From the NCBI GenBank assembly GCA_965117035.1, contig OZ220748.1:815992-879991 (forward strand): a stretch of DNA of 64,000 nt, given 5' to 3'. Shown here one piece after another: positions 33,611 to 55,844 of the stretch. Source of the stretch: Dehalococcoidia bacterium (lineage in GTDB: Bacteria > Chloroflexota > Dehalococcoidia > Lucifugimonadales > CAZENU01). Made by a program: the position numbers and the translations under genes. How positions within the stretch are numbered: position 1 is the first letter of the stretch; each line of letters begins with the position of its first letter. Below the pieces are notes generated by a model. It did not search any database. It saw only the letters and a list, made by a program, of their open reading frames with translations, and had not been told where the DNA came from.

Positions 33611-33670
33611 CCCTGGCCTCCTGGGTGCTTTGATTCTACAGGTTAGACGTCGGTCCGGCCCCGCGCGGTT

Positions 33671-34805: not shown

Positions 34806-34969
34806 AGTTATACGACATATCTCCGTGTTCGGATTTCGAGGTGTGCAACAACGCTGTCGACGGCCGCGAGAAAGCCCCTCCGGCATCTCGCGAAGCGCTG
34901 CCCGGATTATATCAGGGCGGGCCGCCCGCCCGTCGGCGCCGGGTAGCCGACGGGCGGAGTCCGGGCGGG

Positions 34970-39418: not shown

Positions 39419-40534
39419 CTACGAGGAGCGGTACGGGTCCAGCCAGCCGCGGAGGCCGATGCCGAACAGGTTGAAGCCGAGGATGGCTACCAGGAACGCC
39501 AGGGCCGGCATCAGCGGCAGCCACGGCTTGTTGAACAGCAGCAACCGTGAGCCCGACAGCATGCCGCCCCACTCCGCCGCCTGCACGACTCTCAGCGACT
39601 GGGGGACGCTCGAAGGGGCACGCTCCCCGAACACGATGCCGATGAACCCCAGTTCGGCCAGGATCAGCGTCGCCGCGCTGAGCTCGAGGGCGAACGCGGG
39701 CAGCAACTGAGGCGCGAGGTTCGGGAACACGTGCCGTCGAATCAGGTGGCCGGGCGTAGAACCCAGCGTACGGGCGCCCTCCATGTAGGGTTGCGCCTTG
39801 ATCCACGCGATTGCGCCATTGACGAGGTTTGTCAGCTCGGCCCAGCCGGTCAGCGCGAGGCCGAGCAGGAAGACGCCGAATCCCTGCTGCGGTCCGATCG
39901 ATACGATGAACAGGTATGCGAACAGCAGGCTGGGCACGGAGGCCGATACCTGCGCCAGCGACAGTATCTGCTGGCTGACGCCGCTCTGCCTCCAGCCCGC
40001 GACCCCTCCCAGCCCGACACCGATCGTCAGCCTGAGCACCGTCGCCGCGAGGGCCAGCCCCAGGGTCAGGCGCGTGCCGTAGATGATCTGGGTGAGCACG
40101 TCGCGGCCTTCGTGGTCGGTGCCGAGCGGATAGGGCGGGCTCGGCGGAATGGGCGGCGCCATCAGCTCGCCCTGGATCATCTGGAGAAAACGGCCTATGT
40201 CCAGGTCCTTCTCATACGGCGCCAACACCTGTGGCGTGAACGCCGCCACGATGAGAACGAGGACTATGACACTGCCCAATACGAGGGAAGTGTTCGAGAG
40301 AAACCGCACGCCGCCGGTGACGACCCGCTCCGTCAAGCTCCTTCCGAGCCTGATCTCGGTCCGCTCTCGGAGGGCCCGCCGCCTCATCCAGGCAGACACC
40401 TTGACGTGCGGTAGCCACTGCCGGAGCACCTGGCTGAGCACAACCAGGGCGATGACCAGGGCGATCAGCACCCAGGAGAACCTCATCCACCAGACGCTCA
40501 CCGGCGGGGGCGTAGGAGCCCTTAGCTGCATCAC
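39419..40534 (-). CDS. ABC transporter permease (DppC-like) with long N-terminal extension
   Basis: EAA loop MEGARTLGSTPGHLIRRHVFPN; about 100 extra N-terminal residues with an additional TM segment. Confidence 0.85.
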   Translation of the reverse strand: MMQLRAPTPPPVSVWWMRFSWVLIALVIALVVLSQVLRQWLPHVKVSAWMRRRALRERTEIRLGRSLTERVVTGGVRFLSNTSLVLGSVIVLVLIVAAFTPQVLAPYEKDLDIGRFLQMIQGELMAPPIPPSPPYPLGTDHEGRDVLTQIIYGTRLTLGLALAATVLRLTIGVGLGGVAGWRQSGVSQQILSLAQVSASVPSLLFAYLFIVSIGPQQGFGVFLLGLALTGWAELTNLVNGAIAWIKAQPYMEGARTLGSTPGHLIRRHVFPNLAPQLLPAFALELSAATLILAELGFIGIVFGERAPSSVPQSLRVVQAAEWGGMLSGSRLLLFNKPWLPLMPALAFLVAILGFNLFGIGLRGWLDPYRSS

Positions 40535-40562
40535 TTTGCCACGTCCCTGTCTCTACCCAGCC

Positions 40563-41447
40563 TCAAGTCGTCCCCGTTTCCAACGCGGCCATTCGCTTGT
40601 CGATCTGGCGGATGGCCAGCCTGATGAGTACGTTCACCACGAACAGCGTCGCGGCGATCGACACGAGCAGGTAGGCAGCCTGGATGCTGTCCCGCCCCAG
40701 GACCGCCTGCAGCAGATAGTAGCCGACGCCCGCCCAGTTGAAGAGCCACTCGATCACGAAGACGCTGCTCAGCGCGAAGAAGAAGGAGGAGTTGACCGCC
40801 GTCAGCACCGGAAGGGCTATGTTCGGCAGGATGTGCCACCCGAGGATGCCGCGGTAACGCAAACCCTTCGCGTATGCCGTCCGCACGTAGTCGCGATGGA
40901 TCACCTCCTGGAGCGCTCCGATCGTCACCTGCGCCATGTAGGCCATGGGGCGGACCGAGAGCACGAGTGCGGGCGCGATCAACCGCCGGGGATCCAGGAT
41001 CTCCACGCTTGGATCGAGGAGCACGAACCGTATCCCGAAGAACGGGCTGATATACCGCACGAAGGCGAGCAGAACGAAGATGCCGAGCAGGAAGCTCGGA
41101 GTCAACACTCCGAGGAAGCTGATGTACGACGCGACGCCGGCGATCCTGGAGCCGGGCCTGAGTCCGCTGATCAGGCCGAGGCCGATCCCGATCAGCGAGC
41201 CCAGCGCCACCGAGGTCAGCAGCAGCAGCATCGTCCGCAGATAGGCCTCGCCCACGAACGACCACGTGTCCGTGTGCTCGTGGATGCTGGTCAGGAAGTC
41301 GTAGTAGCTCTTGAACGTGTCGCGCAGCGCCTCGAACGACGCGTACAAGGTCCGCAGGACCGGATGATCAAGGGTCGCGAAGGCGAAGAACGTTACTAGC
41401 AGGACTACCAGCGCCAGCCGGTAGCCGACGATCAGAAAGGTTCGCAG
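40563..41447 (-). CDS. ABC transporter permease (DppB-like), probable CTG start
   Basis: Track ORF starts at TTG 41348, but the frame stays open to 41459 and encodes the expected first TM helix (LRTFLIVGYRLALVVLLVTFFAFATL); CTG at 41447 lies 6 nt after AGAGGT. Confidence 0.7.
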   Translation of the reverse strand: MRTFLIVGYRLALVVLLVTFFAFATLDHPVLRTLYASFEALRDTFKSYYDFLTSIHEHTDTWSFVGEAYLRTMLLLLTSVALGSLIGIGLGLISGLRPGSRIAGVASYISFLGVLTPSFLLGIFVLLAFVRYISPFFGIRFVLLDPSVEILDPRRLIAPALVLSVRPMAYMAQVTIGALQEVIHRDYVRTAYAKGLRYRGILGWHILPNIALPVLTAVNSSFFFALSSVFVIEWLFNWAGVGYYLLQAVLGRDSIQAAYLLVSIAATLFVVNVLIRLAIRQIDKRMAALETGTT

Positions 41448-41463: not shown

Positions 41464-42468
41464 CTAGACTAGCTGGCAAGCGACCCAGTGGCCGTCGGCG
41501 ACCTCGCGCAGCGGAGGCACCTCGTCCGCGCATGACGGGATCGCGATCGGGCAGCGCGTCCGGAAACGGCAGCCGCTCGGCGGATCGATCGGGCTCGGGA
41601 CGTCGCCCTCCAGCGCTATGCGGACTTTCTCCTTGGCCTCGGCCGGGTCTCCGGCGGGCACCGCGGAAAGCAGCGCTCGCGTGTACGGGTGCAGGGGATT
41701 GTCGTAGAGTTCGTCCGTCTCGGAGAACTCGACGAGCTTCCCAAGGTACATCACGGCCACGCGGTCGCTGATGTGCCGGACCACGCGGAGGTCGTGAGAG
41801 ATGAACAGGTACGTCAGCCCGAACCGGTCCTGCAGCTCCTCCAGAAGATTGATGATCTGCGCCTGAATCGACACGTCGAGGGCGGAGATCGGCTCGTCGC
41901 AGACGATGAAGATCGGCTCCAGCGACAGCGCCCGCGCGATCACGATTCGCTGCAGCTGACCACCGCTGAACTCGTGCGGGTACCTGTTGCGCATGTAGGG
42001 GTTGAGGCCCACGGTCGCCAGCAGGTCCACGACGCGGTCGTCGATCTCGTCCTCGGGTACGATCTCGTGCACCCTGATCGGCTCGGCGATCGCGTCGCCG
42101 ATCGTCATCCGCTGGTCAAGCGCCGACTGCGGGTCCTGGAAGATGATCTGCAGCCGCCGCCGGATCCTCTGGAGCTGGCCGCGCGACACGCCGGCCATGT
42201 CCTCACCTTCGAAGAAGATCTTGCCCCCGGTCGGGCGCTCCAGCTGTACGAGGTTGTAGCCGAGGGTAGACTTGCCGCAGCCGCTCTCCCCCACCAGGCC
42301 CATCGTCTCGCCCTGCCGGATCTTCAGGCTGACTCCGTCGACCGCGCGCACCGTCTTGCGATCGGCCATGATTCCGAGGACGATGCCTTTCGTGCCGACC
42401 TCGAAGTAGGTCTCGAGATCCTGGATATCGACGAGGTCCTCGGTCTGGGCGTCGTTCGTTGCCACCAT
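41464..42468 (-). CDS. ABC transporter ATP-binding protein (DppF/OppF-like)
   Basis: Walker [10 protein letters not shown], signature SGGQLQR, Walker [10 protein letters not shown]-terminal oligopeptide-type extension with Cys cluster. Confidence 0.95.
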
Positions 42469-42515
42469 CAGGTCTGTCCTTTCGACATTTGAATTGGGGG
42501 CCGCCGATGTTGCGG

Positions 42516-43529
42516 CTAAGCCTGTGCCGCCGCCACCTCGGCTTCAGTCGGCGGATTCCAGCACGCGGCGATATGGCCTCCGCCCATGTCCGTGAGCGTC
42601 GGGTTTTCTTCCCAGCAGCGGTCCACCGGTCCGGAGCACCGCGGAGCGAAGGGACATCCCGCGTCCAGATTCGCAAGGCTCGGCGGCATGCCGCCGATGG
42701 CTGTCAGGACATTGCCCTTCCGCTCGACCTTCGGCAGGGACTCCAGGAGCGCCGCGGTGTACCGGTGCTTCGGGCGGAAGAAAATATCGTCCACCGGGCC
42801 CTCTTCCACGATGTACCCCGCGTACATCACGGCCACGCGGTCGGCCAGCTCGGCTACGACGCCGAGGTCGTGGGTGATCCAGATGACCGACATGCCGCGC
42901 TCCGCCTTGAGCTCCCTGACCAGGTCCAGCAGCTGCGCCTGGACGGAAACGTCGAGCGCCGTCGTCGGCTCATCGGCGATCAGCAACAGGGGATCGCAGC
43001 ACAGGGCGATGGCGATCATCACGCGTTGCCGCATTCCACCGCTGAACTGGAAGGGATAGTCGTAGTACCGAGACGCGGCGGACGGCACGCCGACCCTGTC
43101 CATCAGTCGAACGGCCCGGCTGCGGGCGGTCTTCTCGTCGACACCCAGGTGCACCTGCATCGTCTCCGCGATCTGCGGTCCGATCTTGACCGTGGGATTC
43201 AGGGAGTTTTCGGGGTCCTGGAAGATCATCCCCATCTTCGTGCTGCGCCGCTGCCTGATCTGCGTGTCGGTCAGCGACAGGATGTCCTCTCCGTCAAGGA
43301 TGATCTTGCCCGTCATCAGCTCCAGAGGCGGGCTGGGCACCAGTCCCATGATCGACAGCGCCGTCATCGTCTTGCCGCTGCCGCTCTCGCCCACGATACA
43401 AAGCGTCTCCGCCTTGTCGACCGTGAAGTTGCTGCCGTTCACGGCCTTGATCACACCCTCTCGGGAGCCGAGGTGGGTCTCCAGGCCCTCTACTGCTAGA
43501 ACGTTTTCGGTGGTCATGCCCCTGTTCAC
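42516..43529 (-). CDS. ABC transporter ATP-binding protein (DppD/OppD-like)
   Basis: Walker A GESGSGKT, signature SGGMRQR, Walker [13 protein letters not shown]. Confidence 0.95.
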
Positions 43530-43536
43530 CGTACCT

Positions 43537-44535
43537 CTATCGTTGTATGGCCCGCGGGTTCAGGGCGTCGTTCAGCCCGTCTCCCAGGAAGTTGAACCCG
43601 AACACCGCGACTGCCAGGACCATCCCAGGCATCACGACCAGGTGTGGATCGTAGCGCCAGCGCGTCAGATTCTCCGAGACCATGTTGCCCCAGCTCGCCG
43701 CGGGCGGCTGGATTCCAAGGCCCAGGAAGCTCAGCGTAGATTCGGTGAGCATGACGCCGCCGACACCGGCCGATACGGACACCACGATCGGGGATATCGC
43801 GTTCGGCACCAGGTGCTTGGTGATGATCATCCGCTGGGGGACGCCGAGGGCTTTTTCCGCCCTGATGAACCCCATCTCCTTGAGCGAGAGCACCTGTCCT
43901 CGCACCAGCCTCGCGTAGCCCACCCACTCGGTGGCGGAGATCGCGCCGAACATCATGAAGTAGTCGATGTATATCCGCTGGTTGAGGATGCCCCACTCGG
44001 TCTTCGAGTAGATGTCCGCGAGGAAGATCGTCACCGGCTCACGCATGGTGACGCTGAGGAACGCCGCCATCAGGATGTTGGGGAACGCGGACAACAGCTC
44101 CCCGATCCTTATGATGACGTCGTCGACCCATCTGCCCACGAACCCTGCCGTCGCCCCCAGGGTGACACCTATGGTCACGCTGATGACCAGCACGACCACG
44201 GCCACGAAGACCGCCGTCCTGGCGCCGTTCAGGATCCGGCTCGTGAAGTCGCGCCCAAGCACGTCGGTCCCCATCCAATGGTCCCAGCTCGGCGCTTCCG
44301 CGATGCGGCTGAAGTCGTTTCGGAGGTAGTCGTAAGGGGCGATATACGGGCCCACGACCGCCATCAGGATGATGGCGATAGCGATGATCGACCCGACGAC
44401 GGCGGCCTTGTTGCGCACGAGCCGCTCCAGCGCGTCCATCCACAGGCTGCGCTGCTTGACGGCCTCGAACTCCGTCGCCAGGGACCGCCTCTCGGCGGCT
44501 GGTTGGACTCCAGACTCTTCTACGGTGTCAGCCAT
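43537..44535 (-). CDS. ABC transporter permease (DppC-like)
   Basis: EAA loop IRAEKALGVPQRMIITKHLVPN, six TM pattern. Confidence 0.9.
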   Translation of the reverse strand: MADTVEESGVQPAAERRSLATEFEAVKQRSLWMDALERLVRNKAAVVGSIIAIAIILMAVVGPYIAPYDYLRNDFSRIAEAPSWDHWMGTDVLGRDFTSRILNGARTAVFVAVVVLVISVTIGVTLGATAGFVGRWVDDVIIRIGELLSAFPNILMAAFLSVTMREPVTIFLADIYSKTEWGILNQRIYIDYFMMFGAISATEWVGYARLVRGQVLSLKEMGFIRAEKALGVPQRMIITKHLVPNAISPIVVSVSAGVGGVMLTESTLSFLGLGIQPPAASWGNMVSENLTRWRYDPHLVVMPGMVLAVAVFGFNFLGDGLNDALNPRAIQR

Positions 44536-44580
44536 GGCACAATCCTACCCTTTCAGATTGTCGGCGGCTCTCGTCGCCGC

Positions 44581-45552
44581 CTATTCGTACCTGACCCGCG
44601 GGTCCAGCACCCCGTACAGCAGGTCGACCACCAGGTTAGAGACGATCCACATCGCCGTGCCCAGCATCGTGCCTGCCAGGATCATCGGGAAGTCACGGCC
44701 CTGGAAGGCGGAGATGAATGCGTTGGAGAAGCCGGGTATGCCGAACACGAGCTCGACGAGGAATGCCCCCGTCAGGAAGCCCGCGAGCGTCGGCCCGAAG
44801 CCTGTCAGCACCGGGGTCAGGGCGTTGCGCAGGATGTGGCGGCTGATGACCATCCGCTCCTTCAGGCCCTTCGCCCGCGCCGTCCGCACGTAGCCCTGTC
44901 TCACGACTTCCAGGATACCCGCGCGGGTCATCCGCACGATGCCCAGGGCGCCGCCGAGCGACATCAACGCCACCGGGAGGATCGAGTTCGTAGTGAACAG
45001 CCCCTCCCACCCGACGGGCGTATCCATGATCTGCAGCTTGAGGACCACCACGATCATGACCATCGGGCCCAGCACGAACACCGGCACGGAGTTGACCGCG
45101 ATCGACCCTGCCACAATCCAGTAGTCGATCCACGTGTTCTGTTTGACCGCCGCGAGGATCCCTAAGGGGACGAAGACGGTGTACAGGATGATAAACGAAG
45201 CCAGGCCGAGCTGCGCCGAGATCGGGAGCGAGGCCTGGATGATGTCCGCGATGTCCCGCTGCGAGCGCAGCGACTTGCCCCAGTCGCCGCGGATGATGCC
45301 CTCGTTCCTCGCATCCGGCACGCACAGGCTGCCGCAGACGTAGTCTCCGAACTGGATCATGAAGGGTCGGTCGAGGCCGTAGATCTTGCGCAGGCGCGCC
45401 AGGATCTCAGGGTCGTTCTCGTAGTCGTCCTCGCCGAACATGATCGACAGCGGATCGCCCGGTCCGTAGTGGATGAAGGCGAAGGTGCCTATGAGCACGC
45501 CGAACAACACCGGAAAGAACAGCAGTATTCGTCTGACCACAAAAACAAACAT
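44581..45552 (-). CDS. ABC transporter permease (DppB-like)
   Basis: MFVFVVRRILLFFPVLFGVLIGTFAF opening; RTARAKGLKERMVISRHILRNA EAA loop. Confidence 0.9.
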   Translation of the reverse strand: MFVFVVRRILLFFPVLFGVLIGTFAFIHYGPGDPLSIMFGEDDYENDPEILARLRKIYGLDRPFMIQFGDYVCGSLCVPDARNEGIIRGDWGKSLRSQRDIADIIQASLPISAQLGLASFIILYTVFVPLGILAAVKQNTWIDYWIVAGSIAVNSVPVFVLGPMVMIVVVLKLQIMDTPVGWEGLFTTNSILPVALMSLGGALGIVRMTRAGILEVVRQGYVRTARAKGLKERMVISRHILRNALTPVLTGFGPTLAGFLTGAFLVELVFGIPGFSNAFISAFQGRDFPMILAGTMLGTAMWIVSNLVVDLLYGVLDPRVRYE

Positions 45553-45815
45553 GAACTGCCTCCAGATCCGCCCGTGCTATCCCTGCCGTCGCCGCGAAGA
45601 TAACCTCAGGCCCCGTTGGGGTTTCCTCCAGCCTGGACGCTGCATAGGGCAGATAGCTCTCTTCCGTCGCACCATCGCCCCCACGCGCCCCTTGCGAGCG
45701 CCCCGTTCGTGCAGGGTTTCACAATTGGCTGACCGCATTATACATGAACTTGCAAGCGGCGGGAAGTCCCGTCTTCCAGGGTGCCGCAGAGCCGCGGCCA
45801 CTGACCCTCGTCCGG

Positions 45816-45862
45816 CCCCCGAAAACGCCGGGGCCCCGGGAGCGAATCGTTCCCGGGGCCCC
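45816..45862 (-). terminator. GC-rich hairpin terminator after SBP-1
   Basis: GGGGCCCCGGGA (45830-45841) / TCCCGGGGCCCC (45851-45862) 12-bp stem; on the minus strand it is followed by GGCGTTTTCGGGG. Confidence 0.6.
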
Positions 45863-45872
45863 AGTTCTATCA

Positions 45873-47482
45873 ACTCCGTTGTCCTCACGCCGGCTCAGAC
45901 CGGCGTCGGAACCGCTCTATTCGAAGTGACTCGCCTAGTGCTTCGCGATGTACGCCGTCGTCAGCGTGTTGAAGTCCAGGTTGCTCGTGCTCTCGAATCC
46001 GATGAGCCACGGCTGCACCACCCACTTGACTCCCTGCACCTCGGTGAACGGGATCATGTAGACCTTCTCGAGGTACTCCTGTTCGACGGCCTGGAACGCG
46101 GCGCAGCGGTCCGGGTGGTCCAGCGGCAGCGACCGGGCGTACTCGACCATGGCGTCCAGCACCGGGTAGCCGCCCGGTATGTTGCTCAGCGACTCGATCG
46201 AGTCCTTGCGAGTCAGGTTGCTCACGATCTGGATCGGGTCGGGAATCCACGAACCCAGGCTGATGCGGTAGAACTGCGAGTTCTCGCGCCTGGGCATGCC
46301 CGACTCGCGTCGGAGGATATCCAGCTCCACGTCCAGGTTGTCCTTCCAGTACTCCTTCATCGCGACGCCCATGGCGATGGTCGTCGGGTGCGCCAGGTCG
46401 ATCAGCAGCAGGGGCAGGTTGTCGCCGCTGCCGTAGGTCGACTCGGACAGGGCCTGTCGGGCCAGGTCTGGATCGTAGTACTGGGGATCGGAGTCCGGGT
46501 TGTGACATGGGATCAGGCTGGATATCAGGCCCTTGGCCCTGGTTGCCGTGGAGCCCCATACGGCCTTGACGATCGTCTCCATGTCCTGGCCGTGGGCCAG
46601 CGCCTTGCGGACCAGCAGGTCCTCCAGCGGCGCCATGTCGATCTTCAGCTTGGTGAACCCAAGGCCGCCGTACGGCGAAATGTACAGCAGCGGGTTGAAC
46701 GGATGGCTCGGGTTCAGCGCCGCCTCGTACGTCGTCGAATCGATCGACATCACGTCCAGCTCGCCGTTCTCGAACATGATCACCTGGACCTGGCGGTCCG
46801 GAATCACCGGCAGCGAGAGCTTCTCGATTATGGGCGTGGCGTGCGGCCCGTTCCACTGCTTGCCGGCCAGGTCGACCCTGGTGACCTCGGTGAGGCCGCT
46901 GTCAGGATCGTAGCTCAGGCTGAAGGGGCCCGCCGAGATCGGGGCGTTGCCCCAGTCGTCGTCGGCCTTCACCTGGTCGAGCTTCGAGATGCCGACATGC
47001 CATGCGGCCATGTTCAGCGGCCAGGTGGCCAACGGGATCACCGTCGAAACCTCCAGCGTCTGGTCGTCGATCACGACCAGGCCGTCGGACTCGGTCACCT
47101 CCCCAGCGCGCAACTCTTCCCAGCCCGCGATGTCGCCAAGGGTCAGGCTCGCGCCGCCCCACGCGACGATGTTCTCGGGCTTCGCGCCGTGCTCCCAGTA
47201 AGCCTTGAAGTCGGCCGCCGTGATCGGGGTCCCGTCCTGGAAGACGGCATCCTCACGTATCTTCAGCGTCCAGACGTCCAGCGAGTCGTTGGAGGTGATA
47301 CCCGTCGCGATCCACGGCAGCACGTCTCCCTTCTGGTTGATGATGAAGGGCGGGCCGAAGACCTGCGTCGAGAATATCCTGTTTCCGCCGCCATCGCGCC
47401 ACGGGGCCATCGTGCTCCGGAAGCGGCCCACGGACATCGCGACCTGCGAGTCGTGGAGCTGCGGCCCGCCGCCCTCCGGTCC
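45873..47482. repeat. 1610-bp block apparently identical to 48059-49668 (offset 2186)
   Basis: Boundaries found by direct comparison (first mismatch 47483 C vs 49669 T). All overlapping track ORFs in several frames are letter-identical between the two copies (for example 45885..46856 = 48071..49042). Confidence 0.9.
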
Positions 47483-47776
47483 CGTCCTCGTCTCTACCCT
47501 CGCTCGGGGTCCGCTCGGACCCGCGTCCGCCGCCTGGGGCGCGTCGGGGTCCGCAGCCGCCTGGGCGGGGAGCGGCGTGTCCGCCGCCATAGCCGCCCGC
47601 GGGGCCGCGGGACCGCCCGTGGCCGCCTGCGGCTGCGCCGGGTCTACCGGCTGCGCGGCAGCCTGCGGCGCGACCGGCTCGGCCGCCTCCTCGGCGGCAC
47701 AAGCCGCGACGACTGCCATAGCCGCGATCGCTGCCACAACGAGCAGCAATACTCTCGATTTCAGAACGTTACTCAT
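45935..47776 (-). CDS. ABC substrate-binding lipoprotein, family 5, SBP-1
   Basis: ATG at 47776 after AGAGGT; lipobox (AMAVVAAC), about 95-aa Ala/Pro/Gln linker, SBP_bac_5 body; the C-terminal ~515 aa are identical to SBP-2. Confidence 0.9.
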   Translation of the reverse strand: MSNVLKSRVLLLVVAAIAAMAVVAACAAEEAAEPVAPQAAAQPVDPAQPQAATGGPAAPRAAMAADTPLPAQAAADPDAPQAADAGPSGPRARVETRTGPEGGGPQLHDSQVAMSVGRFRSTMAPWRDGGGNRIFSTQVFGPPFIINQKGDVLPWIATGITSNDSLDVWTLKIREDAVFQDGTPITAADFKAYWEHGAKPENIVAWGGASLTLGDIAGWEELRAGEVTESDGLVVIDDQTLEVSTVIPLATWPLNMAAWHVGISKLDQVKADDDWGNAPISAGPFSLSYDPDSGLTEVTRVDLAGKQWNGPHATPIIEKLSLPVIPDRQVQVIMFENGELDVMSIDSTTYEAALNPSHPFNPLLYISPYGGLGFTKLKIDMAPLEDLLVRKALAHGQDMETIVKAVWGSTATRAKGLISSLIPCHNPDSDPQYYDPDLARQALSESTYGSGDNLPLLLIDLAHPTTIAMGVAMKEYWKDNLDVELDILRRESGMPRRENSQFYRISLGSWIPDPIQIVSNLTRKDSIESLSNIPGGYPVLDAMVEYARSLPLDHPDRCAAFQAVEQEYLEKVYMIPFTEVQGVKWVVQPWLIGFESTSNLDFNTLTTAYIAKH

Positions 47777-47817
47777 TGGTTCGACCTCTATCACTTAAGG
47801 TTCAACGCGTCCTTGCA

Positions 47818-47846
47818 ATAATAGGGAGCGCTCCGATAGCTGTCAA
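47818..47846 (-). promoter_or_regulatory. sigma-70-type promoter of SBP-1 (TTGACA-17-TATTAT)
   Basis: Minus-strand TTGACA at 47846-47841, 17-nt spacer, TATTAT at 47823-47818, about 40 nt upstream of the start codon. Confidence 0.55.
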
Positions 47847-48004
47847 GACCGCCCCGGCGGCGGCGGGAGGCCTCTGAATTCCGCGAAGCCGCGCCCCACA
47901 GGTCGTGTTCGGCCGTATCCGCAAACTCGCAAGGGCAACCCCACCGGTTCAGCCTTCCTGCCGGAGCATTCCGCAGAATGTCCCGCCTGATCGCCCCATC
48001 CATT

Positions 48005-48049
48005 CCCCGGCAACACACGTGGGCCCCGGGATCGCTCCCGGGGCCCCAC
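48005..48049 (-). terminator. GC-rich hairpin terminator after SBP-2
   Basis: GTGGGCCCCGGGA / TCCCGGGGCCCCAC stem (one bulge) with 4-nt loop, 70 nt past the stop codon. Confidence 0.5.
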
Positions 48050-48058
48050 GTTCTGTCG

Positions 48059-49668
48059 ACTCCGTTGTCCTCACGCCGGCTCAGACCGGCGTCGGAACCG
48101 CTCTATTCGAAGTGACTCGCCTAGTGCTTCGCGATGTACGCCGTCGTCAGCGTGTTGAAGTCCAGGTTGCTCGTGCTCTCGAATCCGATGAGCCACGGCT
48201 GCACCACCCACTTGACTCCCTGCACCTCGGTGAACGGGATCATGTAGACCTTCTCGAGGTACTCCTGTTCGACGGCCTGGAACGCGGCGCAGCGGTCCGG
48301 GTGGTCCAGCGGCAGCGACCGGGCGTACTCGACCATGGCGTCCAGCACCGGGTAGCCGCCCGGTATGTTGCTCAGCGACTCGATCGAGTCCTTGCGAGTC
48401 AGGTTGCTCACGATCTGGATCGGGTCGGGAATCCACGAACCCAGGCTGATGCGGTAGAACTGCGAGTTCTCGCGCCTGGGCATGCCCGACTCGCGTCGGA
48501 GGATATCCAGCTCCACGTCCAGGTTGTCCTTCCAGTACTCCTTCATCGCGACGCCCATGGCGATGGTCGTCGGGTGCGCCAGGTCGATCAGCAGCAGGGG
48601 CAGGTTGTCGCCGCTGCCGTAGGTCGACTCGGACAGGGCCTGTCGGGCCAGGTCTGGATCGTAGTACTGGGGATCGGAGTCCGGGTTGTGACATGGGATC
48701 AGGCTGGATATCAGGCCCTTGGCCCTGGTTGCCGTGGAGCCCCATACGGCCTTGACGATCGTCTCCATGTCCTGGCCGTGGGCCAGCGCCTTGCGGACCA
48801 GCAGGTCCTCCAGCGGCGCCATGTCGATCTTCAGCTTGGTGAACCCAAGGCCGCCGTACGGCGAAATGTACAGCAGCGGGTTGAACGGATGGCTCGGGTT
48901 CAGCGCCGCCTCGTACGTCGTCGAATCGATCGACATCACGTCCAGCTCGCCGTTCTCGAACATGATCACCTGGACCTGGCGGTCCGGAATCACCGGCAGC
49001 GAGAGCTTCTCGATTATGGGCGTGGCGTGCGGCCCGTTCCACTGCTTGCCGGCCAGGTCGACCCTGGTGACCTCGGTGAGGCCGCTGTCAGGATCGTAGC
49101 TCAGGCTGAAGGGGCCCGCCGAGATCGGGGCGTTGCCCCAGTCGTCGTCGGCCTTCACCTGGTCGAGCTTCGAGATGCCGACATGCCATGCGGCCATGTT
49201 CAGCGGCCAGGTGGCCAACGGGATCACCGTCGAAACCTCCAGCGTCTGGTCGTCGATCACGACCAGGCCGTCGGACTCGGTCACCTCCCCAGCGCGCAAC
49301 TCTTCCCAGCCCGCGATGTCGCCAAGGGTCAGGCTCGCGCCGCCCCACGCGACGATGTTCTCGGGCTTCGCGCCGTGCTCCCAGTAAGCCTTGAAGTCGG
49401 CCGCCGTGATCGGGGTCCCGTCCTGGAAGACGGCATCCTCACGTATCTTCAGCGTCCAGACGTCCAGCGAGTCGTTGGAGGTGATACCCGTCGCGATCCA
49501 CGGCAGCACGTCTCCCTTCTGGTTGATGATGAAGGGCGGGCCGAAGACCTGCGTCGAGAATATCCTGTTTCCGCCGCCATCGCGCCACGGGGCCATCGTG
49601 CTCCGGAAGCGGCCCACGGACATCGCGACCTGCGAGTCGTGGAGCTGCGGCCCGCCGCCCTCCGGTCC
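48059..49668. repeat. second copy of the apparently identical 1610-bp block
   Basis: See 45873-47482. Confidence 0.9.
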
Positions 49669-49965
49669 TGTCCTCGTCTCTACCTTCGCGCGGGGTCCGC
49701 TCGGACCCGCGTCCGCTGCCTGGGGCGCGTCGGGGTCCGCAGCCGCCTGGGCGGGCAGCGGCGTGTCCGCCGCCATCGCGGCCCGCGGCGCCGCGGGCCC
49801 GCCGGTGGCCGCCTGCGGCTGGGCCGGGTCTACAGGCTGCGACGCAGCTTGGGGCGCAACCGGCTCCGCTGCCTCCTCCGCCGCGCAGGACGCGATCGCG
49901 ACCAGCGAGATGATGGATGCGGCCATCAAGAGCAGAATTCCTGATTTCGCCATTTTACGCACCAT
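48121..49965 (-). CDS. ABC substrate-binding lipoprotein, family 5, SBP-2
   Basis: ATG at 49965 after GGGAG (alternative start 49953); lipobox (LVAIASC); differs from SBP-1 only in the signal peptide and a few linker residues. Confidence 0.9.
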   Translation of the reverse strand: MVRKMAKSGILLLMAASIISLVAIASCAAEEAAEPVAPQAASQPVDPAQPQAATGGPAAPRAAMAADTPLPAQAAADPDAPQAADAGPSGPRAKVETRTGPEGGGPQLHDSQVAMSVGRFRSTMAPWRDGGGNRIFSTQVFGPPFIINQKGDVLPWIATGITSNDSLDVWTLKIREDAVFQDGTPITAADFKAYWEHGAKPENIVAWGGASLTLGDIAGWEELRAGEVTESDGLVVIDDQTLEVSTVIPLATWPLNMAAWHVGISKLDQVKADDDWGNAPISAGPFSLSYDPDSGLTEVTRVDLAGKQWNGPHATPIIEKLSLPVIPDRQVQVIMFENGELDVMSIDSTTYEAALNPSHPFNPLLYISPYGGLGFTKLKIDMAPLEDLLVRKALAHGQDMETIVKAVWGSTATRAKGLISSLIPCHNPDSDPQYYDPDLARQALSESTYGSGDNLPLLLIDLAHPTTIAMGVAMKEYWKDNLDVELDILRRESGMPRRENSQFYRISLGSWIPDPIQIVSNLTRKDSIESLSNIPGGYPVLDAMVEYARSLPLDHPDRCAAFQAVEQEYLEKVYMIPFTEVQGVKWVVQPWLIGFESTSNLDFNTLTTAYIAKH

Positions 49966-50007
49966 TATTGCTCCCAATCACTAAAGGGCGTAGTCCAGTG
50001 GGCCCAA

Positions 50008-50035
50008 TTATAGAGGCGCCCGAATCGCTGTCAAT
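50008..50035 (-). promoter_or_regulatory. sigma-70-type promoter of SBP-2 (TTGACA-16-TATAAT)
   Basis: Minus-strand TTGACA 50035-50030, 16-nt spacer, TATAAT 50013-50008. Confidence 0.6.
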
Positions 50036-50189
50036 ACCTCGGAGTCCGAGGCGGCGGACCGTCGATCTCCGGCATCCGTGATCCGGGTCCACTGCTTCAG
50101 TCGGACCGCGCCCGTTGCGTTTGGCCGGGGCGGCCGGCGCCTTGGTTCGCAAGAACTCGACGCACGTCCGCCGGCGCCGTGGGCCTACC

Positions 50190-50233
50190 GTGGGGAACGA
50201 CAAAGGGCCCCGGGCAGTTGCCCCGGGGCCCTT
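50190..50233 (-). terminator. GC-rich hairpin terminator after SBP-3
   Basis: AAGGGCCCCGGGC / GCCCCGGGGCCCTT stem, AGTT loop, followed on the minus strand by TTTGTCGTT. Confidence 0.6.
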
Positions 50234-50261
50234 CGACTTATCGTCGGTTATGCGGTCCGGT

Positions 50262-52070
50262 CTAGTGCTTCAGGATGTACATCCAGGGCATCGTGTTGAT
50301 TTCTTTGTTGCTTGTGCTCTCGAAGCCAACCGCCCACGGCTGCACGATCCACTTCGAGCCGCCGACCCACCGGATAGGCATGAAGTACACCTTGTCCATG
50401 TACTCTTCCTCGACCGCCTGCCACGCCGCGCAGCGCTCTGGATCGTCCAGCGCCAGCGACCGCGCGTGCTCTACCAGCGCGTCCATCACCGGGTAACCGC
50501 CCGGAATGTTGCTCAGACCCTCGATCGAGTCCTTACGGGTCAGGTTGCTTACGATCTGGATCGGGTCCGGTATCCACGAACCCAGGCTGATGCGGTAGAA
50601 CTGCGACGCCTCTCGCCGAGGCATGCCGCTCTCGCGCTTCAGGATGTCGAGATCGATGCCGAGGTTGTCCTTCCAGTACTCCTTGACCGCGACGCCCATG
50701 TTGACCATGAGCGGACGGGCCAGGTCGATCAGCAGCGGCGGTAGGTTGTCCGCACTGCCGTACGAGGACGTGGTCAACTCCTGGCGGGCCAGGTCAGGAT
50801 CGTAGATGTGACCCTGGGCATCCGGGTTGTGGCAAGGAATCAGCGGCGAGATCAGTCCCGTCGCGAAGTCCTCGGTCACGCCCCAGACCGCCTTGACGAT
50901 CGAGCGCATGTCCGCGCCGTGCGCCAGCGCCTTGCGGACCAGCAGGTCCTCCAGCGGCGCCATGTCGATCTTGTTCTTGATGAACCACAGGCCGCCGTAC
51001 GGGGTTACCACCAGCAGCGGGTTGAACGGATGGCTCGGGTCCAGCGCAGCCTCGTAGGTCGCGCTGTCGATCGCCATCAGGTCGAGCTCGCCGTTCTCGA
51101 ACGCGATCACCTTGACCTGGTTGTCGGTGATGTTCAGGCCGTGCAGCACCTTGATGTTAGGCGAGGGGCCCCAGAACTCGGCAACGTCGGCCGTAGCCGT
51201 GTACACTTTCGTGTCAGGATCCGTCTCCCACTTGTACGGGCCAGCGCCGATCGGCTTGGTGAACCACTCTTCGTCAGACTGGACCTGGTCGAGCTTCGAG
51301 ATGCCCGAGTGCCAGGACGCCATGGCCAGCGGCCAGGTCGGGAACGGGATGGCCGTCGTGATCTCGAGGGTGTGGTCGTCGACAGCGACCAGGCCCTCGG
51401 CCTCGGTCACGTCGCCCGCGCGCAGCTCTTCCCAGCCCGCGATGTCGCCCAGGGACAGGCTCGCGCCGCCCCACGCAACGATATTCTCAGGCTTCGCGCC
51501 GTGCTCCCAGTAGGCCTTGAAGTCGGCCGCCGTGATCGGAGTGCCGTCCTGGAAGACAGCGTCCTCACGCAGCTTGACCGTCCAGACCGTCTCGTCCTCG
51601 TTGACCGTGTGGCTGATGCCAATGTACGGCCGGATCACGCCGAACTTGTCGACCTGGTAGATCATGCCGTATACCCACGGCGAGAAGATCCGCTGTCCGC
51701 CGCCGTCACGCCAGGGGGCTACCCCACCATGACCGTTCGGGATCCTGATCTCCTGCGGGTCGTGCAGCTCGGTGCCCGCCGGGACGACCGTCGTCGGGTC
51801 GACCGGGAAGACATCCGGCAGCTTCATCATCCCCGTGTCCGCCGGCATCGCCGCGGTTGGCGCAGCCGTCGCCGCGGCAGGCGCCGCGGTCGGCGCCATC
51901 GCTGCCGTCGTCGGCGCGGCCGGTGCCGTCGTCGGCGCGGCTGGCGCCGTCGTCGGCGCGGCCATTGCCGCCGTCGGAGCCGGCTCCGCCGCTTCTTCAT
52001 CTGTGCCGCACGCCAGCGCAGCCACCAGCACAATCGACACCAACATGACCAATAGCAGCTTGAGCTTCAT
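50262..52070 (-). CDS. ABC substrate-binding lipoprotein, family 5, SBP-3
   Basis: ATG at 52070 after AAGGGGGA; MKLKLLLVMLVSIVLVAALAC lipobox; Ala/Pro/Thr linker with 3 x 21-bp repeat; body clearly diverged from SBP-1/2, with conserved blocks. Confidence 0.9.
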   Translation of the reverse strand: MKLKLLLVMLVSIVLVAALACGTDEEAAEPAPTAAMAAPTTAPAAPTTAPAAPTTAAMAPTAAPAAATAAPTAAMPADTGMMKLPDVFPVDPTTVVPAGTELHDPQEIRIPNGHGGVAPWRDGGGQRIFSPWVYGMIYQVDKFGVIRPYIGISHTVNEDETVWTVKLREDAVFQDGTPITAADFKAYWEHGAKPENIVAWGGASLSLGDIAGWEELRAGDVTEAEGLVAVDDHTLEITTAIPFPTWPLAMASWHSGISKLDQVQSDEEWFTKPIGAGPYKWETDPDTKVYTATADVAEFWGPSPNIKVLHGLNITDNQVKVIAFENGELDLMAIDSATYEAALDPSHPFNPLLVVTPYGGLWFIKNKIDMAPLEDLLVRKALAHGADMRSIVKAVWGVTEDFATGLISPLIPCHNPDAQGHIYDPDLARQELTTSSYGSADNLPPLLIDLARPLMVNMGVAVKEYWKDNLGIDLDILKRESGMPRREASQFYRISLGSWIPDPIQIVSNLTRKDSIEGLSNIPGGYPVMDALVEHARSLALDDPERCAAWQAVEEEYMDKVYFMPIRWVGGSKWIVQPWAVGFESTSNKEINTMPWMYILKH

Positions 52071-52084
52071 CGAATTCCCCCTTT

Positions 52085-52189
52085 TCACTTTTTCCGAATC
52101 TCGCGAAACGCTACCGGCCACTTTAACGACCGGTTTTCGGATGCGGCCATCAAGAGCAGAATTCCTAGTTTCGACGTCTTACGCGGCAT
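52085..52189 (-). pseudogene. fossil SBP-1/2-type signal-peptide start embedded in the SBP-3 leader
   Basis: ATG CCG CGT AAG ACG TCG AAA CTA GGA ATT CTG CTC TTG ATG GCC GCA TCC (MPRKTSKLGILLLMAAS) parallels SBP-2 MVRKMAKSGILLLMAAS. It then runs into SBP-3/4-type 5' UTR sequence and stops 15 nt before the SBP-3 ATG. The SD-bearing 16 nt of the SBP-2 leader are deleted. Confidence 0.6.
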
Positions 52190-52214
52190 TAAAGGGCGTA
52201 ATCCAGTGGGCTCC

Positions 52215-52242
52215 ATTATAGAGGCGCCCGAACCGTTGTCAA
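52215..52242 (-). promoter_or_regulatory. sigma-70-type promoter upstream of SBP-3 (TTGACA-16-TATAAT)
   Basis: Minus-strand TTGACA 52242-52237, 16-nt spacer, TATAAT 52220-52215; leader of about 140 nt containing the fossil start. Confidence 0.55.
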
Positions 52243-52393
52243 TACCTCGGAATCCGAGTACGTGTTCAGCGTCAAGGGGACGAATGCTCCCAAGCTCTGG
52301 ACACCGGCGCGCCTTCACGGGTGTGGGCTCTTCGCGGGTGTGACGGCGTTGTGGTCAATGGAATCTGGCAGGCGTGGGGCCAGACGCCAACGC

Positions 52394-52553
52394 AACCCCG
52401 TTCGCCGTGAGTGCCCCGACGCTTCGTCGGGGTGTATCGAAGGGCCGGCGCAACCCGGTCTCCTGGCGGGGCCGAGACGAGTATTGGCGGCAAAGCCGCG
52501 TGCGCTACTCGGGGTGAACGGGTTGTGGGGACACCTCGAGTCTGAACAGCTAC
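52394..52553 (+). repeat. repeat family R3, full-length copy
   Basis: AACCCCGTTCGCCGTGAGTGCCCCGACGCTTCGTCGGGGTGTATCGAAGGGCCGGCGCAACCCGGTCTCCTGGCGGGGCCGAGACGAGTATTGGCGGCAAAGCCGCGTGCGCTACTCGGGGTGAACGGGTTGTGGGGACACCTCGAGTCTGAACAGCTAC; aligns with 39111-39287(-). Confidence 0.8.
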
Positions 52554-52625
52554 GAGTCCGACGCAGCAGACCGGCGACCTCGGGCCTCCGAGCCCATGCA
52601 TCGGATATCGGACGCCCCGTTTCGC

Positions 52626-52789
52626 CGTCGGACCCGGCCCGTTGCGTTTGGCCGGAGAGGCCGGCGCCTGTTCGCAAAACTCGACGTCCGTCCGCCGCCG
52701 TAGGCCTGCTGTGCGGAACGACAAAGGGCCCCGGGTTAAACTGCCGGGCCCTTTAACTCATCGTCCGTTATTCGATCCAGTGCTTCAGT
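52626..52789 (-). repeat. orphan duplicate of the SBP 3'-UTR/terminator module ending in a fossil gene end (CCAGTGCTTCAG)
   Basis: Aligns with 52790-52958 and 50093-50275; carries its own hairpin (AAAGGGCCCCGG / CCGGGCCCTTT, about 52723-52754); CTGAAGCACTGG here vs CTGAAGCACTAG (LKH-stop) at real gene ends. Confidence 0.7.
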
Positions 52790-52877
52790 CGGACCCGGCC
52801 CGTTGCGTTTGGCCGGAGAGGCCGGCGCCCCGTTCGCAATACTCGACGGCCGTCCGCCGCCGCCGTATGTCTGATGT

Positions 52878-52918
52878 GCGGAACGACAAAGGGCCCCGGG
52901 CAGTTGCCCGGGGCCCTT
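52878..52918 (-). terminator. GC-rich hairpin terminator after SBP-4
   Basis: Perfect 13-bp stem AAGGGCCCCGGGC / GCCCGGGGCCCTT, AGTT loop, followed on the minus strand by TTTGTCGTTC. Confidence 0.65.
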
Positions 52919-52946
52919 CGACTTATCGTCGGTTATGCGGTCCGGT

Positions 52947-54755
52947 CTAGTGCTTCAGGATGTACATCCAGGGCATCGTGTTGATGTCGAGGTTGCTTGT
53001 GCTCTCGAAGCCAACCGCCCACGGCTGCACGATCCACTTCACGCCGCCGACCCAGCGGATAGGCATGAAGTACACCTTGTCCATGTACTCTTCCTCGACC
53101 GCCTGCCACGCCGCGCAGCGCTCCGGATCGTCCAGCGCCAGCGACCGCGCGTGCTCTACCAGCGCGTCCATCACCGGGTAACCGCCCGGAATGTTGCTCA
53201 GACCCTCGATCGAGTCCTTACGGGTCAGGTTGCTTACGATCTGGATCGGGTCCGGTATCCACGAACCCAGGCTGATGCGGTAGAACTGCGACGCCTCTCG
53301 CCGAGGCATGCCGCTCTCGCGCTTCAGGATGTCGAGATCGATGCCGAGGTTGTCCTTCCAGTACTCCTTGACCGCGACGCCCATGTTGACCATGAGCGGA
53401 CGGGCCAGGTCGATCAGCAGCGGCGGCAGGTTGTCCGCACTGCCGTACGAGGACGTGGACAGCTCCTGGCGGGCCAGGTCAGGATCGTAGATGTGACCCT
53501 GGGCATCCGGGTTGTGGCAAGGAATCAGCGGCGAGATCAGTCCCGTCGCGAAGTCCTCGGTCACGCCCCAGACCGCCTTGACGATCGAGCGCATGTCCGC
53601 GCCGTGCGCCAGCGCCTTGCGGACCAGCAGGTCCTCCAGCGGCGCCATGTCGATCTTGTTCTTGATGAACCACAGGCCGCCGTACGGGGTTACCTTCAGC
53701 AGCGGGTTAAACGGATGGCTCGGGTCCAGCGCAGCCTCGTAGGTCGCGCTGTCGATCGACATCAGGTCGAGCTCGCCGTTCTCGAACGCGATCACCTTGA
53801 CCTGGTTGTCCCTGATGTTCAGGCCGTGCAGCACCTTGATGTTAGGCGAGGGGCCCCAGAACTCGGCAACGTCGGCCGTAGCCGTGTACTCGCTCGTGTC
53901 CGGGTCGGTCACCCACTGGTACGGGCCAGCGCCGATCGGCTTGGTGAACCACTCTTCGTCAGACTGGACCTGGTCGAGCTTCGAGATGCCCGAGTGCCAG
54001 GACGCCATGGCCAGCGGCCAGGTCGGGAACGGAATGGCCGTCGTGATCTCGAGGGTGTGGTCGTCGATGACCGTCAGGCCCTCGGCCTCGGTCACGTCGC
54101 CCGCGCGCAGCTCTTCCCAGCCCGCGATGTCGCCCAGGGACAGGCTCGCGCCGCCCCACGCAACGATGTTCTCAGGCTTCGCGCCGTGCTCCCAGTAGGC
54201 CTTGAAGTCGGCCGCCGTGATCGGAGTGCCGTCCTGGAAGACAGCGTCCTCACGCAGCTTGACCGTCCAGACCGTCTCGTCCTCGTTGACCGTGTGGCTG
54301 ATGCCAATGTATGGCCGGATGACGCCGAACTTGTCGATCTGGTAGACCGTGCCGTATACCCACATCGAGAAGATCCGCTGTCCGCCACCGTCACGCCAGG
54401 GGGCTACCCCACCATGACCGTTCGGGACCCTGATCTCCTGCGGGTCGTGCAGATCGGTGCCCGCCGGGACGACCGTCGTCGGGTCGACCGGGAAGACATC
54501 CGGCAGCTTCGGCATCGTGTCCACCATCGCCGCGGTTGGCGCAGCCGTAGGAGCGGCCGGTGCCGCCGTAGGCGCCATCGCTGCCGTCGTCGGCGCGGCT
54601 GGTGCCGTCGTCGGCGCGGCCGGCGCCGTCGTCGGCGCGGCCATTGCCGCCGTCGGAGCCGGAGCCGTCTCCGTCTCTTCTTCATCTGTGCCGCACGCCA
54701 GCGCCGCCACCAGCGCAATCGACACCAACATGACCAATAGCAACTTAAGCTTCAT
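52947..54755 (-). CDS. ABC substrate-binding lipoprotein, family 5, SBP-4
   Basis: ATG at 54755 after GGGGGA; MKLKLLLVMLVSIALVAALAC lipobox; roughly 95% identical by eye to SBP-3. Confidence 0.9.
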   Translation of the reverse strand: MKLKLLLVMLVSIALVAALACGTDEEETETAPAPTAAMAAPTTAPAAPTTAPAAPTTAAMAPTAAPAAPTAAPTAAMVDTMPKLPDVFPVDPTTVVPAGTDLHDPQEIRVPNGHGGVAPWRDGGGQRIFSMWVYGTVYQIDKFGVIRPYIGISHTVNEDETVWTVKLREDAVFQDGTPITAADFKAYWEHGAKPENIVAWGGASLSLGDIAGWEELRAGDVTEAEGLTVIDDHTLEITTAIPFPTWPLAMASWHSGISKLDQVQSDEEWFTKPIGAGPYQWVTDPDTSEYTATADVAEFWGPSPNIKVLHGLNIRDNQVKVIAFENGELDLMSIDSATYEAALDPSHPFNPLLKVTPYGGLWFIKNKIDMAPLEDLLVRKALAHGADMRSIVKAVWGVTEDFATGLISPLIPCHNPDAQGHIYDPDLARQELSTSSYGSADNLPPLLIDLARPLMVNMGVAVKEYWKDNLGIDLDILKRESGMPRREASQFYRISLGSWIPDPIQIVSNLTRKDSIEGLSNIPGGYPVMDALVEHARSLALDDPERCAAWQAVEEEYMDKVYFMPIRWVGGVKWIVQPWAVGFESTSNLDINTMPWMYILKH

Positions 54756-54804
54756 CGATTCCCCCATTTCACTTTTTTCCGAATTTCGCGAAACGCTACC
54801 GGCC

Positions 54805-54832
54805 ATTATAATGACCGGTTCCCGGCTGTCAA
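54805..54832 (-). promoter_or_regulatory. sigma-70-type promoter of SBP-4 (TTGACA-16-TATAAT)
   Basis: Minus-strand TTGACA 54832-54827, 16-nt spacer, TATAAT 54810-54805, about 45 nt upstream of the start codon. Confidence 0.6.
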
Positions 54833-55181: not shown

Positions 55182-55754
55182 CTATTCGTTCGGGAAAGTG
55201 TACTGGTGCCAGTAGTTGGCGTTGATCGAAGGCTTGCCCTTGTAGAGCTCGATCCGGCCTTCGACGCAGAGTTTCCTGCCGTTGAAGTAGGTCGTCAGGT
55301 CGATCGAGCGGTCCGCCTTGTCGGGCCACACGCCGATGCGCAGCGGATCGTCCCAGAAGTAGACGAAGAAATCAGGGTCTTCCGCCTTGTCGAAGTTCAG
55401 AACGGTGATCTTGAAGCTGTGCTCCGGATCGTGGTCCGAGAACATCACGGTCCCGCAGACCTGGCCACTCTTGCCGACCGACTCGACCGCCTCCGCGACG
55501 GTCAGCGGTTCGGTCTGCGTGGTCCCTCCATAGCCGCCCTGGTACTGGATTATCGATGCCTGCGTCGCCTCTGCCTCGGCGGCCGCCTTCGTCGGTGTCG
55601 CCTGCGGAGCCCTGCCGGTGAACTCGGTGCTGGGCGCGGCCCCTCCGGACGACACGGCCTGGCCGTCGCCTCCGTCGTCTCCACCGCCGCACGCGGCTGC
55701 GAGGGCGGCGAGCGCGCCCAAGACGGCAACCACGCTCCATCTTCGCAATTGCAT
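55182..55754 (-). CDS. hypothetical lipoprotein, paralog A (190 aa)
   Basis: ATG at 55754 after GGAGGT; lipobox LAALAAAC, Gly/Ala-rich linker, conserved two-Cys C-terminal domain shared with 55845..56414. Confidence 0.7.
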   Translation of the reverse strand: MQLRRWSVVAVLGALAALAAACGGGDDGGDGQAVSSGGAAPSTEFTGRAPQATPTKAAAEAEATQASIIQYQGGYGGTTQTEPLTVAEAVESVGKSGQVCGTVMFSDHDPEHSFKITVLNFDKAEDPDFFVYFWDDPLRIGVWPDKADRSIDLTTYFNGRKLCVEGRIELYKGKPSINANYWHQYTFPNE

Positions 55755-55844
55755 GTTCTGAAGACCTCCGGGATTCGCCGGCGGACCCGGCCGGAGCACG
55801 GCCGCGTCATCCGCGCAGGTTGCGATTCGGCCCTCGGGCCTCTC

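Follow-up and report, generated by a model that had tools for sequence, protein, structure and literature searches.

The tufA and tufB genes of Salmonella are near-identical copies that lie far apart on the chromosome. Sequence is transferred non-reciprocally between these two protein-coding paralogues, in tracts that run either way until the bounds of homology, and the genes evolve in concert, each resembling its paralogue more closely than its orthologues (Paulsson, El Karoui, Lindell & Hughes 2017, PMC5485169). Here we describe a comparable case in a stretch of 64,000 nucleotides from a Dehalococcoidia bacterium (contig OZ220748.1, positions 815,992 to 879,991), which is called the window throughout. 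S1 and S2, two neighbouring genes for substrate-binding proteins (SBPs) of one importer operon, share a long identical block that is very probably the product of a very recent non-reciprocal ectopic gene conversion between old tandem paralogues, with S2 as the donor and S1 as the recipient. Unlike the tuf genes, S1 and S2 lie in tandem, 2.2 kb apart, and the core that was overwritten was ~15-16% diverged. Moreover, while two equivalent copies are maintained in the tuf system, here a paralogue that appears functionally distinct, judging from its conservation, has been erased.

Other systems resemble this one in part. In the concerted evolution of rRNA operons and other bacterial multigene families, repeated genes are homogenised within a genome by recombination (review PMC6002687). 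In those families homogenisation is continuous and nearly universal, whereas in the SBP array it takes the form of sporadic recent events and the types stay mostly distinct. With regard to gene arrangement, Borrelia burgdorferi also has several family-5 substrate-binding lipoproteins beside one Opp-type permease/ATPase set; there several OppA proteins serve one Opp permease, which is thought to widen the ligand repertoire (PMC7822543). That paper concerns the functional specialisation of OppA, and gene conversion enters it only through a cited reference on vls. Finally, a preprint on Mycobacterium tuberculosis describes conversion tracts between paralogues that long-read assemblies reveal and short reads collapse (PMC13061034). 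There conversion is reported to drive diversity hotspots in antigen and virulence-associated loci, whereas in the window it homogenises a nutrient-uptake gene pair. The mechanism is therefore already known and nothing here is mechanistically new, but the case is well documented, and our literature searches returned no report of conversion among SBP paralogues in Chloroflexota.

An identical block in two tandem SBP genes

The locus is an Opp/Dpp-type ATP-binding cassette (ABC) importer operon on the minus strand, in which four tandem SBP_bac_5 lipoprotein genes (in order, S4, S3, S2 and S1) are followed downstream by two genes for permeases and two for ATPases. The features of S1 and S2 on which the comparison depends are listed here; types 1 and 2 refer to positions in the array and are defined in the next section.

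45935-47776, minus strand: S1, SBP_bac_5 lipoprotein gene adjoining the permease genes (Pfam PF00496, E = 7e-47)
48121-49965, minus strand: S2, SBP_bac_5 lipoprotein gene, probable conversion donor (Pfam PF00496)
45873-47482, minus strand: recipient copy of the block, in S1, very probably the most recent conversion tract (exact identity to 48059-49668; diagnostic sites)
48059-49668, minus strand: probable donor copy of the block, in S2 (type-2 diagnostic sites in flanks and body; groups with type-2 orthologues)
47483-47698, minus strand: Ala/Pro/Gln-rich linker of S1, partly homogenised (22 substitutions against S2 49669-49884)
47699-47776, minus strand: signal peptide of S1 with lipobox Cys (MSNVLKSRVLLLVVAAIAAMAVVAAC), type-1, unconverted (nearest to L027_1 and L039_1)
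49885-49965, minus strand: signal peptide of S2 with lipobox Cys (MVRKMAKSGILLLMAASIISLVAIASC), type-2 (clusters with type-2 5' ends)
47818-47846, minus strand: S1's own promoter-like site, TTGACA-17-TATTAT (11/12 matches; conserved in L027_1 and L039_1)
50007-50034, minus strand: S2's own promoter-like site, TTGACA-16-TATAAT (12/12 matches)
45887-45906, minus strand: first hairpin of the 3' untranslated region (UTR), CGCCGG-UCUGAG-CCGGCG, within the block (from folding; twin at 48073-48092)
45828-45864, minus strand: GC-rich terminator-like hairpin of S1, just outside the block (diverged from the S2 hairpin at 48017-48051)

An earlier note, made from the letters of the window, had found no difference between 45873-47482 and 48059-49668 and had proposed an exact alignment. 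We ran it as a direct string comparison, in which 1610 of 1610 nt are equal, with 0 differences at an offset of 2186. The exact run cannot be extended at either end, and an independent exact-repeat scan recovered the same block. In S1 and S2 alike it comprises codons 99-613, the stop codon and 62 nt of the 3' UTR. Differences spread evenly along the two genes would have counted against the earlier note; instead, among 1880 aligned homologous columns of S1 and S2, the 33 that differ all lie outside the block. Randomly placed differences would leave a run of 1610 or more with a probability of ~5e-27.

The edges of the block are not alike, and the claim that identity ends abruptly holds for one of them only. 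On the 3' side the end is indeed abrupt, at 45872, directly before the terminator-like hairpin. On the 5' side, however, identity decays gradually through the Ala/Pro linker, where one mismatch at 47483 is followed by 87-98% identity to S2, and it collapses only at the signal peptide. The 22 substitutions that separate the linkers fall in 47483-47699, 20 of them at third codon positions. Signal peptides and leaders differ between S1 and S2, as had also been noticed from the letters, and so do the promoters.

S1 and S2 are old paralogues

We compared the window with a syntenic set of 15 loci (L001-L003, L027-L031 and L033-L039), plus L040, from related Dehalococcoidia assemblies. In all the syntenic loci the same operon is preceded by three or four SBP genes, and a neighbour-joining tree of mature-domain DNA gives four clean clades that match array position; these are called types 4, 3, 2 and 1, type 1 being the SBP position adjoining the permeases. 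A tandem S1/S2 pair is found in all the related genomes examined, and in unconverted relatives the two bodies are only ~82-85% identical. Over the gene unit, S1/S2 identity amounts to 81.8% in L002, 83.1% in L003, 96.0% in L001 and 98.5% in the window. When the count is restricted to the columns of the block, the L039 pair has 254 differences and the L027 pair 241 (~15-16%), against 0 for the window pair. Body length is diagnostic as well, being 1479 nt in type 1 and 1470 nt in type 2, and S1 of the window measures 1470 nt. The array of the closest relative, L039, which is ~92-94% identical in DNA over the locus, is 3-2-1 and unconverted.

The earlier note had also asked how copy number compares with related strains, and had offered, as an alternative to conversion, a very recent duplication with older 5' ends. 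In the form considered here, one SBP gene was duplicated in tandem and the 5' ends then diverged or were replaced. The pair is indeed tandem and near-identical, and a real duplication is found next door, in S3/S4 (see below). However, the number of S1/S2 genes is the same as in L039 and L027, the S2-S1 order is shared with these and the other loci, and no junction is present. The promoters, signal peptides and 3' flanks of both genes have positional orthologues in all related genomes, and the flanks of S1 are type-1 on both sides. Since the number of S1/S2 genes is unchanged and the flanks are positional orthologues of old genes, the duplication is refuted for S1 and S2, and we give it next to no credit.

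Some SBP genes of the relatives are broken. The type-1 gene of L030 (about 12200-14046) has a 1-nt deletion in the linker, the type-1 gene of L040 (12186-14043) is split into three open reading frames (ORFs), and the type-2 gene of L039 (9234-11077) into two. These could be pseudogenes or low-coverage errors, the name of the L039 contig suggesting a coverage of about 6x.

S1 is a chimera of two gene types

In the tree of gene bodies, S1 of the window departs from the positional clades and falls within the type-2 clade, beside S2. A tree built from the 200 nt that precede the lipobox Cys, by contrast, has S1 among the type-1 genes and S2 among the type-2 genes. The same structure is seen at 201 diagnostic sites, at which the unconverted relatives L039 and L027 show a fixed difference between types 1 and 2. 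Across the 5' flank S1 is type-1 at 31/34 sites and S2 is type-2 at 30/34; within the block each of them is type-2 at 130/136; in the 3' flank S1 is again type-1, at 30/30 sites, and S2 type-2 at 24/30. Accordingly S1 is a 1-2-1 chimera. In the block it has 262 differences from its positional orthologue L039_1 and only 82 from L039_2, from which S2 also differs at 82 sites.

Over a bounded tract, then, the two paralogues of this genome are closer to each other than to their orthologues, while both flanks of the tract keep positional orthology and the copy number is unchanged. Because the body of S1 is type-2 between type-1 flanks and S2 is type-2, the transfer was non-reciprocal and went from S2 to S1, the donor remaining unchanged and the recipient being overwritten. 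The paralogy is old and the event that homogenised the block is recent, so that the first suggestion of the earlier note, a recent gene conversion with older 5' ends, finds support in the orthologues.

A second event and the question of assembly

An identical block is also present in L001, where 7988-9643 equals 10184-11839 exactly, over 1656 bp and at an offset of 2196. Here too the 5' ends have kept their positional orthology, L001_1 matching L003_1 at 90% identity and L001_2 matching the L030 type-2 gene at 97%, and both bodies are type-2. A normal type-1 body is retained in L030 and L033-L037, close relatives of L001, and the L001 event is therefore distinct from that of the window; its direction, from S2 to S1, is the same. 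Two events share a direction with a chance of 50% at random, and we make no claim of bias. In the L001 linker, copy 1 carries type-2 sequence and copy 2 has short type-1-like patches, these reciprocal patches being confined to the linker; they look like the outcome of bidirectional heteroduplex repair and not like something that an assembler would invent. Conversion thus appears as sporadic recent events, in 2 of 15 loci, and the four SBP types are distinct in most lineages.

This second case bears on whether the block could be an assembly or polishing artefact, in which the two genes truly differ and the sequence of one paralogue was written into both places. The window derives from a metagenome-assembled genome (MAG), these proteins occur on a single contig, and our search turned up no other assembly of the strain. 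L001 may stem from the same sequencing project, and a shared pipeline artefact would then be conceivable. However, the flanks of both copies are distinct, each being orthologous to its proper position in 14 other loci, and a true type-1 body would differ at ~250 of 1610 sites, far too many for consensus merging. Contigs of 3.4-3.8 Mb imply long reads spanning the 2.2-kb repeat, and assemblies of the same kind resolve diverged S1 and S2 in L002, L027, L030-L031 and L033-L040. Furthermore, the linker has a graded history of real substitutions, and L001 is an independent case in another assembly. We therefore consider an artefact very unlikely; polishing could at most have erased a handful of true differences.

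Exact repeats were also seen in another related genome, in a different locus, L009, which was fetched around a related SBP gene. It contains a 715-bp exact direct repeat (6379-7093 and a copy 9643 nt downstream), with shorter repeats at the same offset, and these may represent further recent recombination between paralogues.

Tract ends and proposed mechanism

In unconverted pairs, exact matches of 25-108 nt between the paralogues occur in three places, corresponding to 47656-47526, 47251-47090 and 46249-45864 of the window, that is, the linker, a conserved internal zone, and the 3' end of the gene with the first 3'-UTR hairpin. These lengths are those of minimal efficient processing segments (MEPS), and the islands of the linker and of the 3' end adjoin the ends of the tract. 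The 5' breakpoint is bracketed by 47483 and the first diagnostic site, 47475, while the 3' breakpoint, at 45872-45873, is the edge of the last identity island. Such ends fit the picture obtained by experiment for the tuf genes, where conversion can extend to either side and halts where the homology stops (PMC5485169).

On this basis we infer that recombination was anchored in the identity islands and that the diverged core was carried along. A break or gap in S1 would have been repaired by homologous recombination, probably of the RecA type, with S2 as the template, either the copy 2186 bp along the same chromosome or that of the sister chromosome. The 5' anchor of the exchange would have been the Ala/Pro linker, where the paralogues were already almost identical, and the 3' anchor the last ~370 nt of the gene together with the first 3'-UTR hairpin; the core between the anchors, ~15-16% diverged, would have been copied over. 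Gene number and flanks would have been kept because no crossover took place.

Several points weigh against a conversion of this kind. In E. coli-like systems with active mismatch repair, conversion over a core that is ~15-16% diverged is strongly disfavoured. The count of zero differences comes from a single metagenome assembly, and the putative functional divergence between types 1 and 2 is read from their conservation. In addition, two unequal crossovers, a duplication followed by a deletion, would give the same final structure. In this last scenario a transient triplication would have been followed by the deletion of a copy. Array copy number does change by recombination, as the visible junction of the S3/S4 duplication and the arrays of three or four genes in related genomes attest, and the end product would be identical in sequence. 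Nevertheless, two rare events would be needed, with breakpoints exactly in both anchors and without a junction scar, and the same outcome would have to arise independently in L001, which makes a single conversion more parsimonious. We regard the two-crossover route as improbable; it would in any case use the same recombination machinery as conversion and have the same consequence.

Age of the event and history of the linker

The two copies of the block differ at 0 sites, compared with the 82 differences that separate them from L039_2. With 3 as the Poisson 95% upper bound on an observed zero, the time elapsed since the conversion is at most roughly 4% of that elapsed since the L039 lineage split off.

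The linker has a different history. Its four sequences (both paralogues, in the window and in L039) are about equally distant from one another, and the pair of each genome has derived states of its own, the window copies sharing states that are absent from L039 and L027. The linker has therefore been homogenised repeatedly, in both lineages, and its pattern of substitutions points to a record of older exchange. We also considered whether the linker differences are type-1 alleles left by patchy repair, and rejected this, as most of them are new singletons on a background common to both copies.

Consequences for the binding domains

At the protein level, the mature domain of S1 is 83.3% identical to its type-1 orthologues and 96.1% identical to L027_2. 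The type-1 orthologues share 97.7% protein identity among themselves and only 83-84% with type 2. One event thus changed ~86 of the 515 residues of the S1 binding domain, and a conserved type-1 paralogue, presumably with a distinct function, was lost from the genome. As far as can be read from the sequence, the promoter, leader and lipoprotein signal peptide of S1 are still its own, while the binding domain encoded by S1 is exactly that of S2, and the type-2 domain would now be made from two transcription units with different promoters, leaders and signal peptides. One transporter specificity would in this way have been removed and the transcription units for another doubled, an outcome that two separate lineages of this uncultured clade of soil or sediment have reached. 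Converted lineages may be short-lived, a view compatible with the zero later substitutions in both events and with the persistence of type 1 in most lineages, in what is a small sample.

A more ambitious reading would make the conserved linker and the conserved 3' end with its 3'-UTR hairpin fixed recombination 'handles', by which separately promoted SBP genes could exchange the ligand-binding domain as a swappable cassette. Conversion that recurs toward the permease-proximal gene would then be selected, re-tuning which binding domain is made and how much of it. Were this true, conversion would not be an occasional accident later removed by selection; we think it unlikely.

The locus is a clean natural example of bacterial gene conversion, if that very probable reading holds, in which donor, recipient, both breakpoints and the state before conversion can be read from related genomes. 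It also carries a caution for annotators and binning pipelines, in that identical blocks in tandem SBP arrays of long-read MAGs can be real and paralogue counts overstate the functional repertoire.

The importer operon and its signals

The rest of the operon lies downstream of S1.

41464-45552, minus strand: remaining importer operon (Pfam BPD_transp_1, OppC_N, ABC_tran, oligo_HPY; syntenic in all related loci)
44581-45552 and 43537-44535, minus strand: permease genes (Pfam)
42516-43529 and 41464-42468, minus strand: ATPase genes with oligo_HPY domain (Pfam)

All eight importer genes have a Pfam match above the gathering score, and one locus holds SBP_bac_5, two BPD_transp_1 permeases and two ABC_tran/oligo_HPY ATPases, the set that marks an importer with a family 5 SBP. 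The exact product of S1 is found in the public collection as P0121. That of S2 is identical to the public protein P0001, on a 3.79-Mb contig, and the close relatives all come from Dehalococcoidia MAGs. The best PDB match of the SBPs is OppA/MppA (E ~1e-23), and they are distant relatives of the characterised OppA, MppA and NikA; against the NCBIfam equivalogs OppA, Opp4A and NikA the best scores were 56-79 bits, below the cut-offs of 393-947, and no ligand class was assigned.

The signal peptide of every SBP in the array is of the lipoprotein type and ends in Cys; an Ala/Pro-rich linker comes after it. A promoter-like site with 11 or 12 of 12 consensus matches precedes each SBP gene, and 5 such sites were found against 1.2 expected by chance. 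The spacer between S1 and S2 measures 326 nt. Folding gives two 3' hairpins for each of S1 and S2, the first of which is kept between the S1/S2 paralogues in relatives. The T-runs are short, and for this reason a simple terminator scan gave nothing on the minus strand, but strong GC hairpins are seen when the sequence is folded. In the Rfam scan of the window the only match at the gathering threshold was a tRNA at 63468-63550, permissive matches in the array region fell far below gathering scores, and no riboswitch or known small RNA accounting for the SBP leaders or 3' UTRs was found.

Two further observations concern the operon. Downstream of the S1 terminator hairpin, at 45740-45775, there is a conserved extended -10-like motif (TGTATAAT), common to L027 and L039, which may be a separate promoter for the permease genes. 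After the ATPase genes, at 39419-41265, a second BPD_transp_1/OppC-like permease pair is found without an SBP or ATPase of its own, an arrangement that is conserved in related loci.

The neighbouring duplication of S3 and S4

Upstream of S2 the array has grown by another route, for which the relevant features are these.

50262-52070, minus strand: S3, type-3 SBP gene with a captured S2-type promoter before it, the downstream copy in a segmental tandem duplication (Pfam, alignment)
52947-54767, minus strand: S4, type-3 SBP gene, upstream parent-like copy (equals public protein P0072; alternative start 54755)
52139-52258, minus strand: duplication junction; the promoter, leader and first ~17 codons of S2 recur here and are joined at ~52139-52143 to the type-3 promoter spacer

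The S4 and S3 units (50075-54828) are 94.8% identical over 2076 bp, and both genes are type-3 in the tree. L039, L027 and L040 have one type-3 gene each and no type 4, whereas the window has two type-3 genes and repeats the segment 6997-8954 of L039. There is thus an extra copy with respect to close relatives together with a novel junction, as in a segmental tandem duplication. The junction is the one expected from a tandem duplication of the unit that runs from the type-3 promoter spacer to codon 17 of S2. At the junction the type-3 promoter has lost its -35 box and has a degraded -10 box, while the captured S2-type promoter stands before S3 at 52242-52215; read from the sequence, the junction fragment forms an upstream ORF of 33 codons. 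S4 is closer than S3 to the single type-3 gene of L039 (53 vs 19 sites), and therefore the downstream copy, S3, diverged faster.

The idea that S4 is a converted type-4 gene was considered and rejected, in view of its type-3 promoter and signal peptide, the duplication junction, and the lack of type 4 in L039, L027 and L040. Nor does the apparent similarity between the S4-S3 spacer and the spacer that separates types 4 and 3 in L029 point to a type 4, as it corresponds to a dispersed repeat. This intergenic repeat, of ~110-180 nt, occurs in the window at 52380-52560 (the S4-S3 spacer) and, inverted, at 39111-39286, as well as in L004-L006, L010, L012, L017, L018, L020, L021, L023, L025 and L029. 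It gave 29 BLAST matches across the window and the fetched loci, the query included, and may be an element of this clade similar to a miniature inverted-repeat transposable element (MITE) or a repetitive extragenic palindromic (REP) sequence.

A second element, of ~165 nt, follows the type-3 SBP genes (hairpin GGGCCCCGGG...CCCGGGGCCC with its flanks). Downstream of S4, in 52627-52958, it is doubled in tandem, the copies 52958-52788 and 52788-52627 being 84% identical, and a third copy lies after S3, at 50273-50100.

Other observations in the window

Upstream of the SBP array, 55182-55799 and 55845-56477 are tandem paralogous small ORFs of 205 and 210 aa, with 73-78% DNA identity in patches. 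Neither has a Pfam or NCBIfam match, and in most of the related loci long enough to include the place, two or three ORFs of similar size without a Pfam match occupy the same position upstream of the array.

At 12710-13740 there is a non-coding cluster of direct and inverted repeats with periods of ~186, 373 and 559 nt, including an exact 184-bp repeat (12835-13018 and 13394-13577); the ORFs that overlap it look spurious.

Finally, cumulative GC skew climbs, in the region of ~26000-35000, to a peak at about 32-33 kb and declines steadily over the remainder of the window. The peak may reflect a replication strand change, of the kind seen at a terminus, or merely a change in gene orientation.

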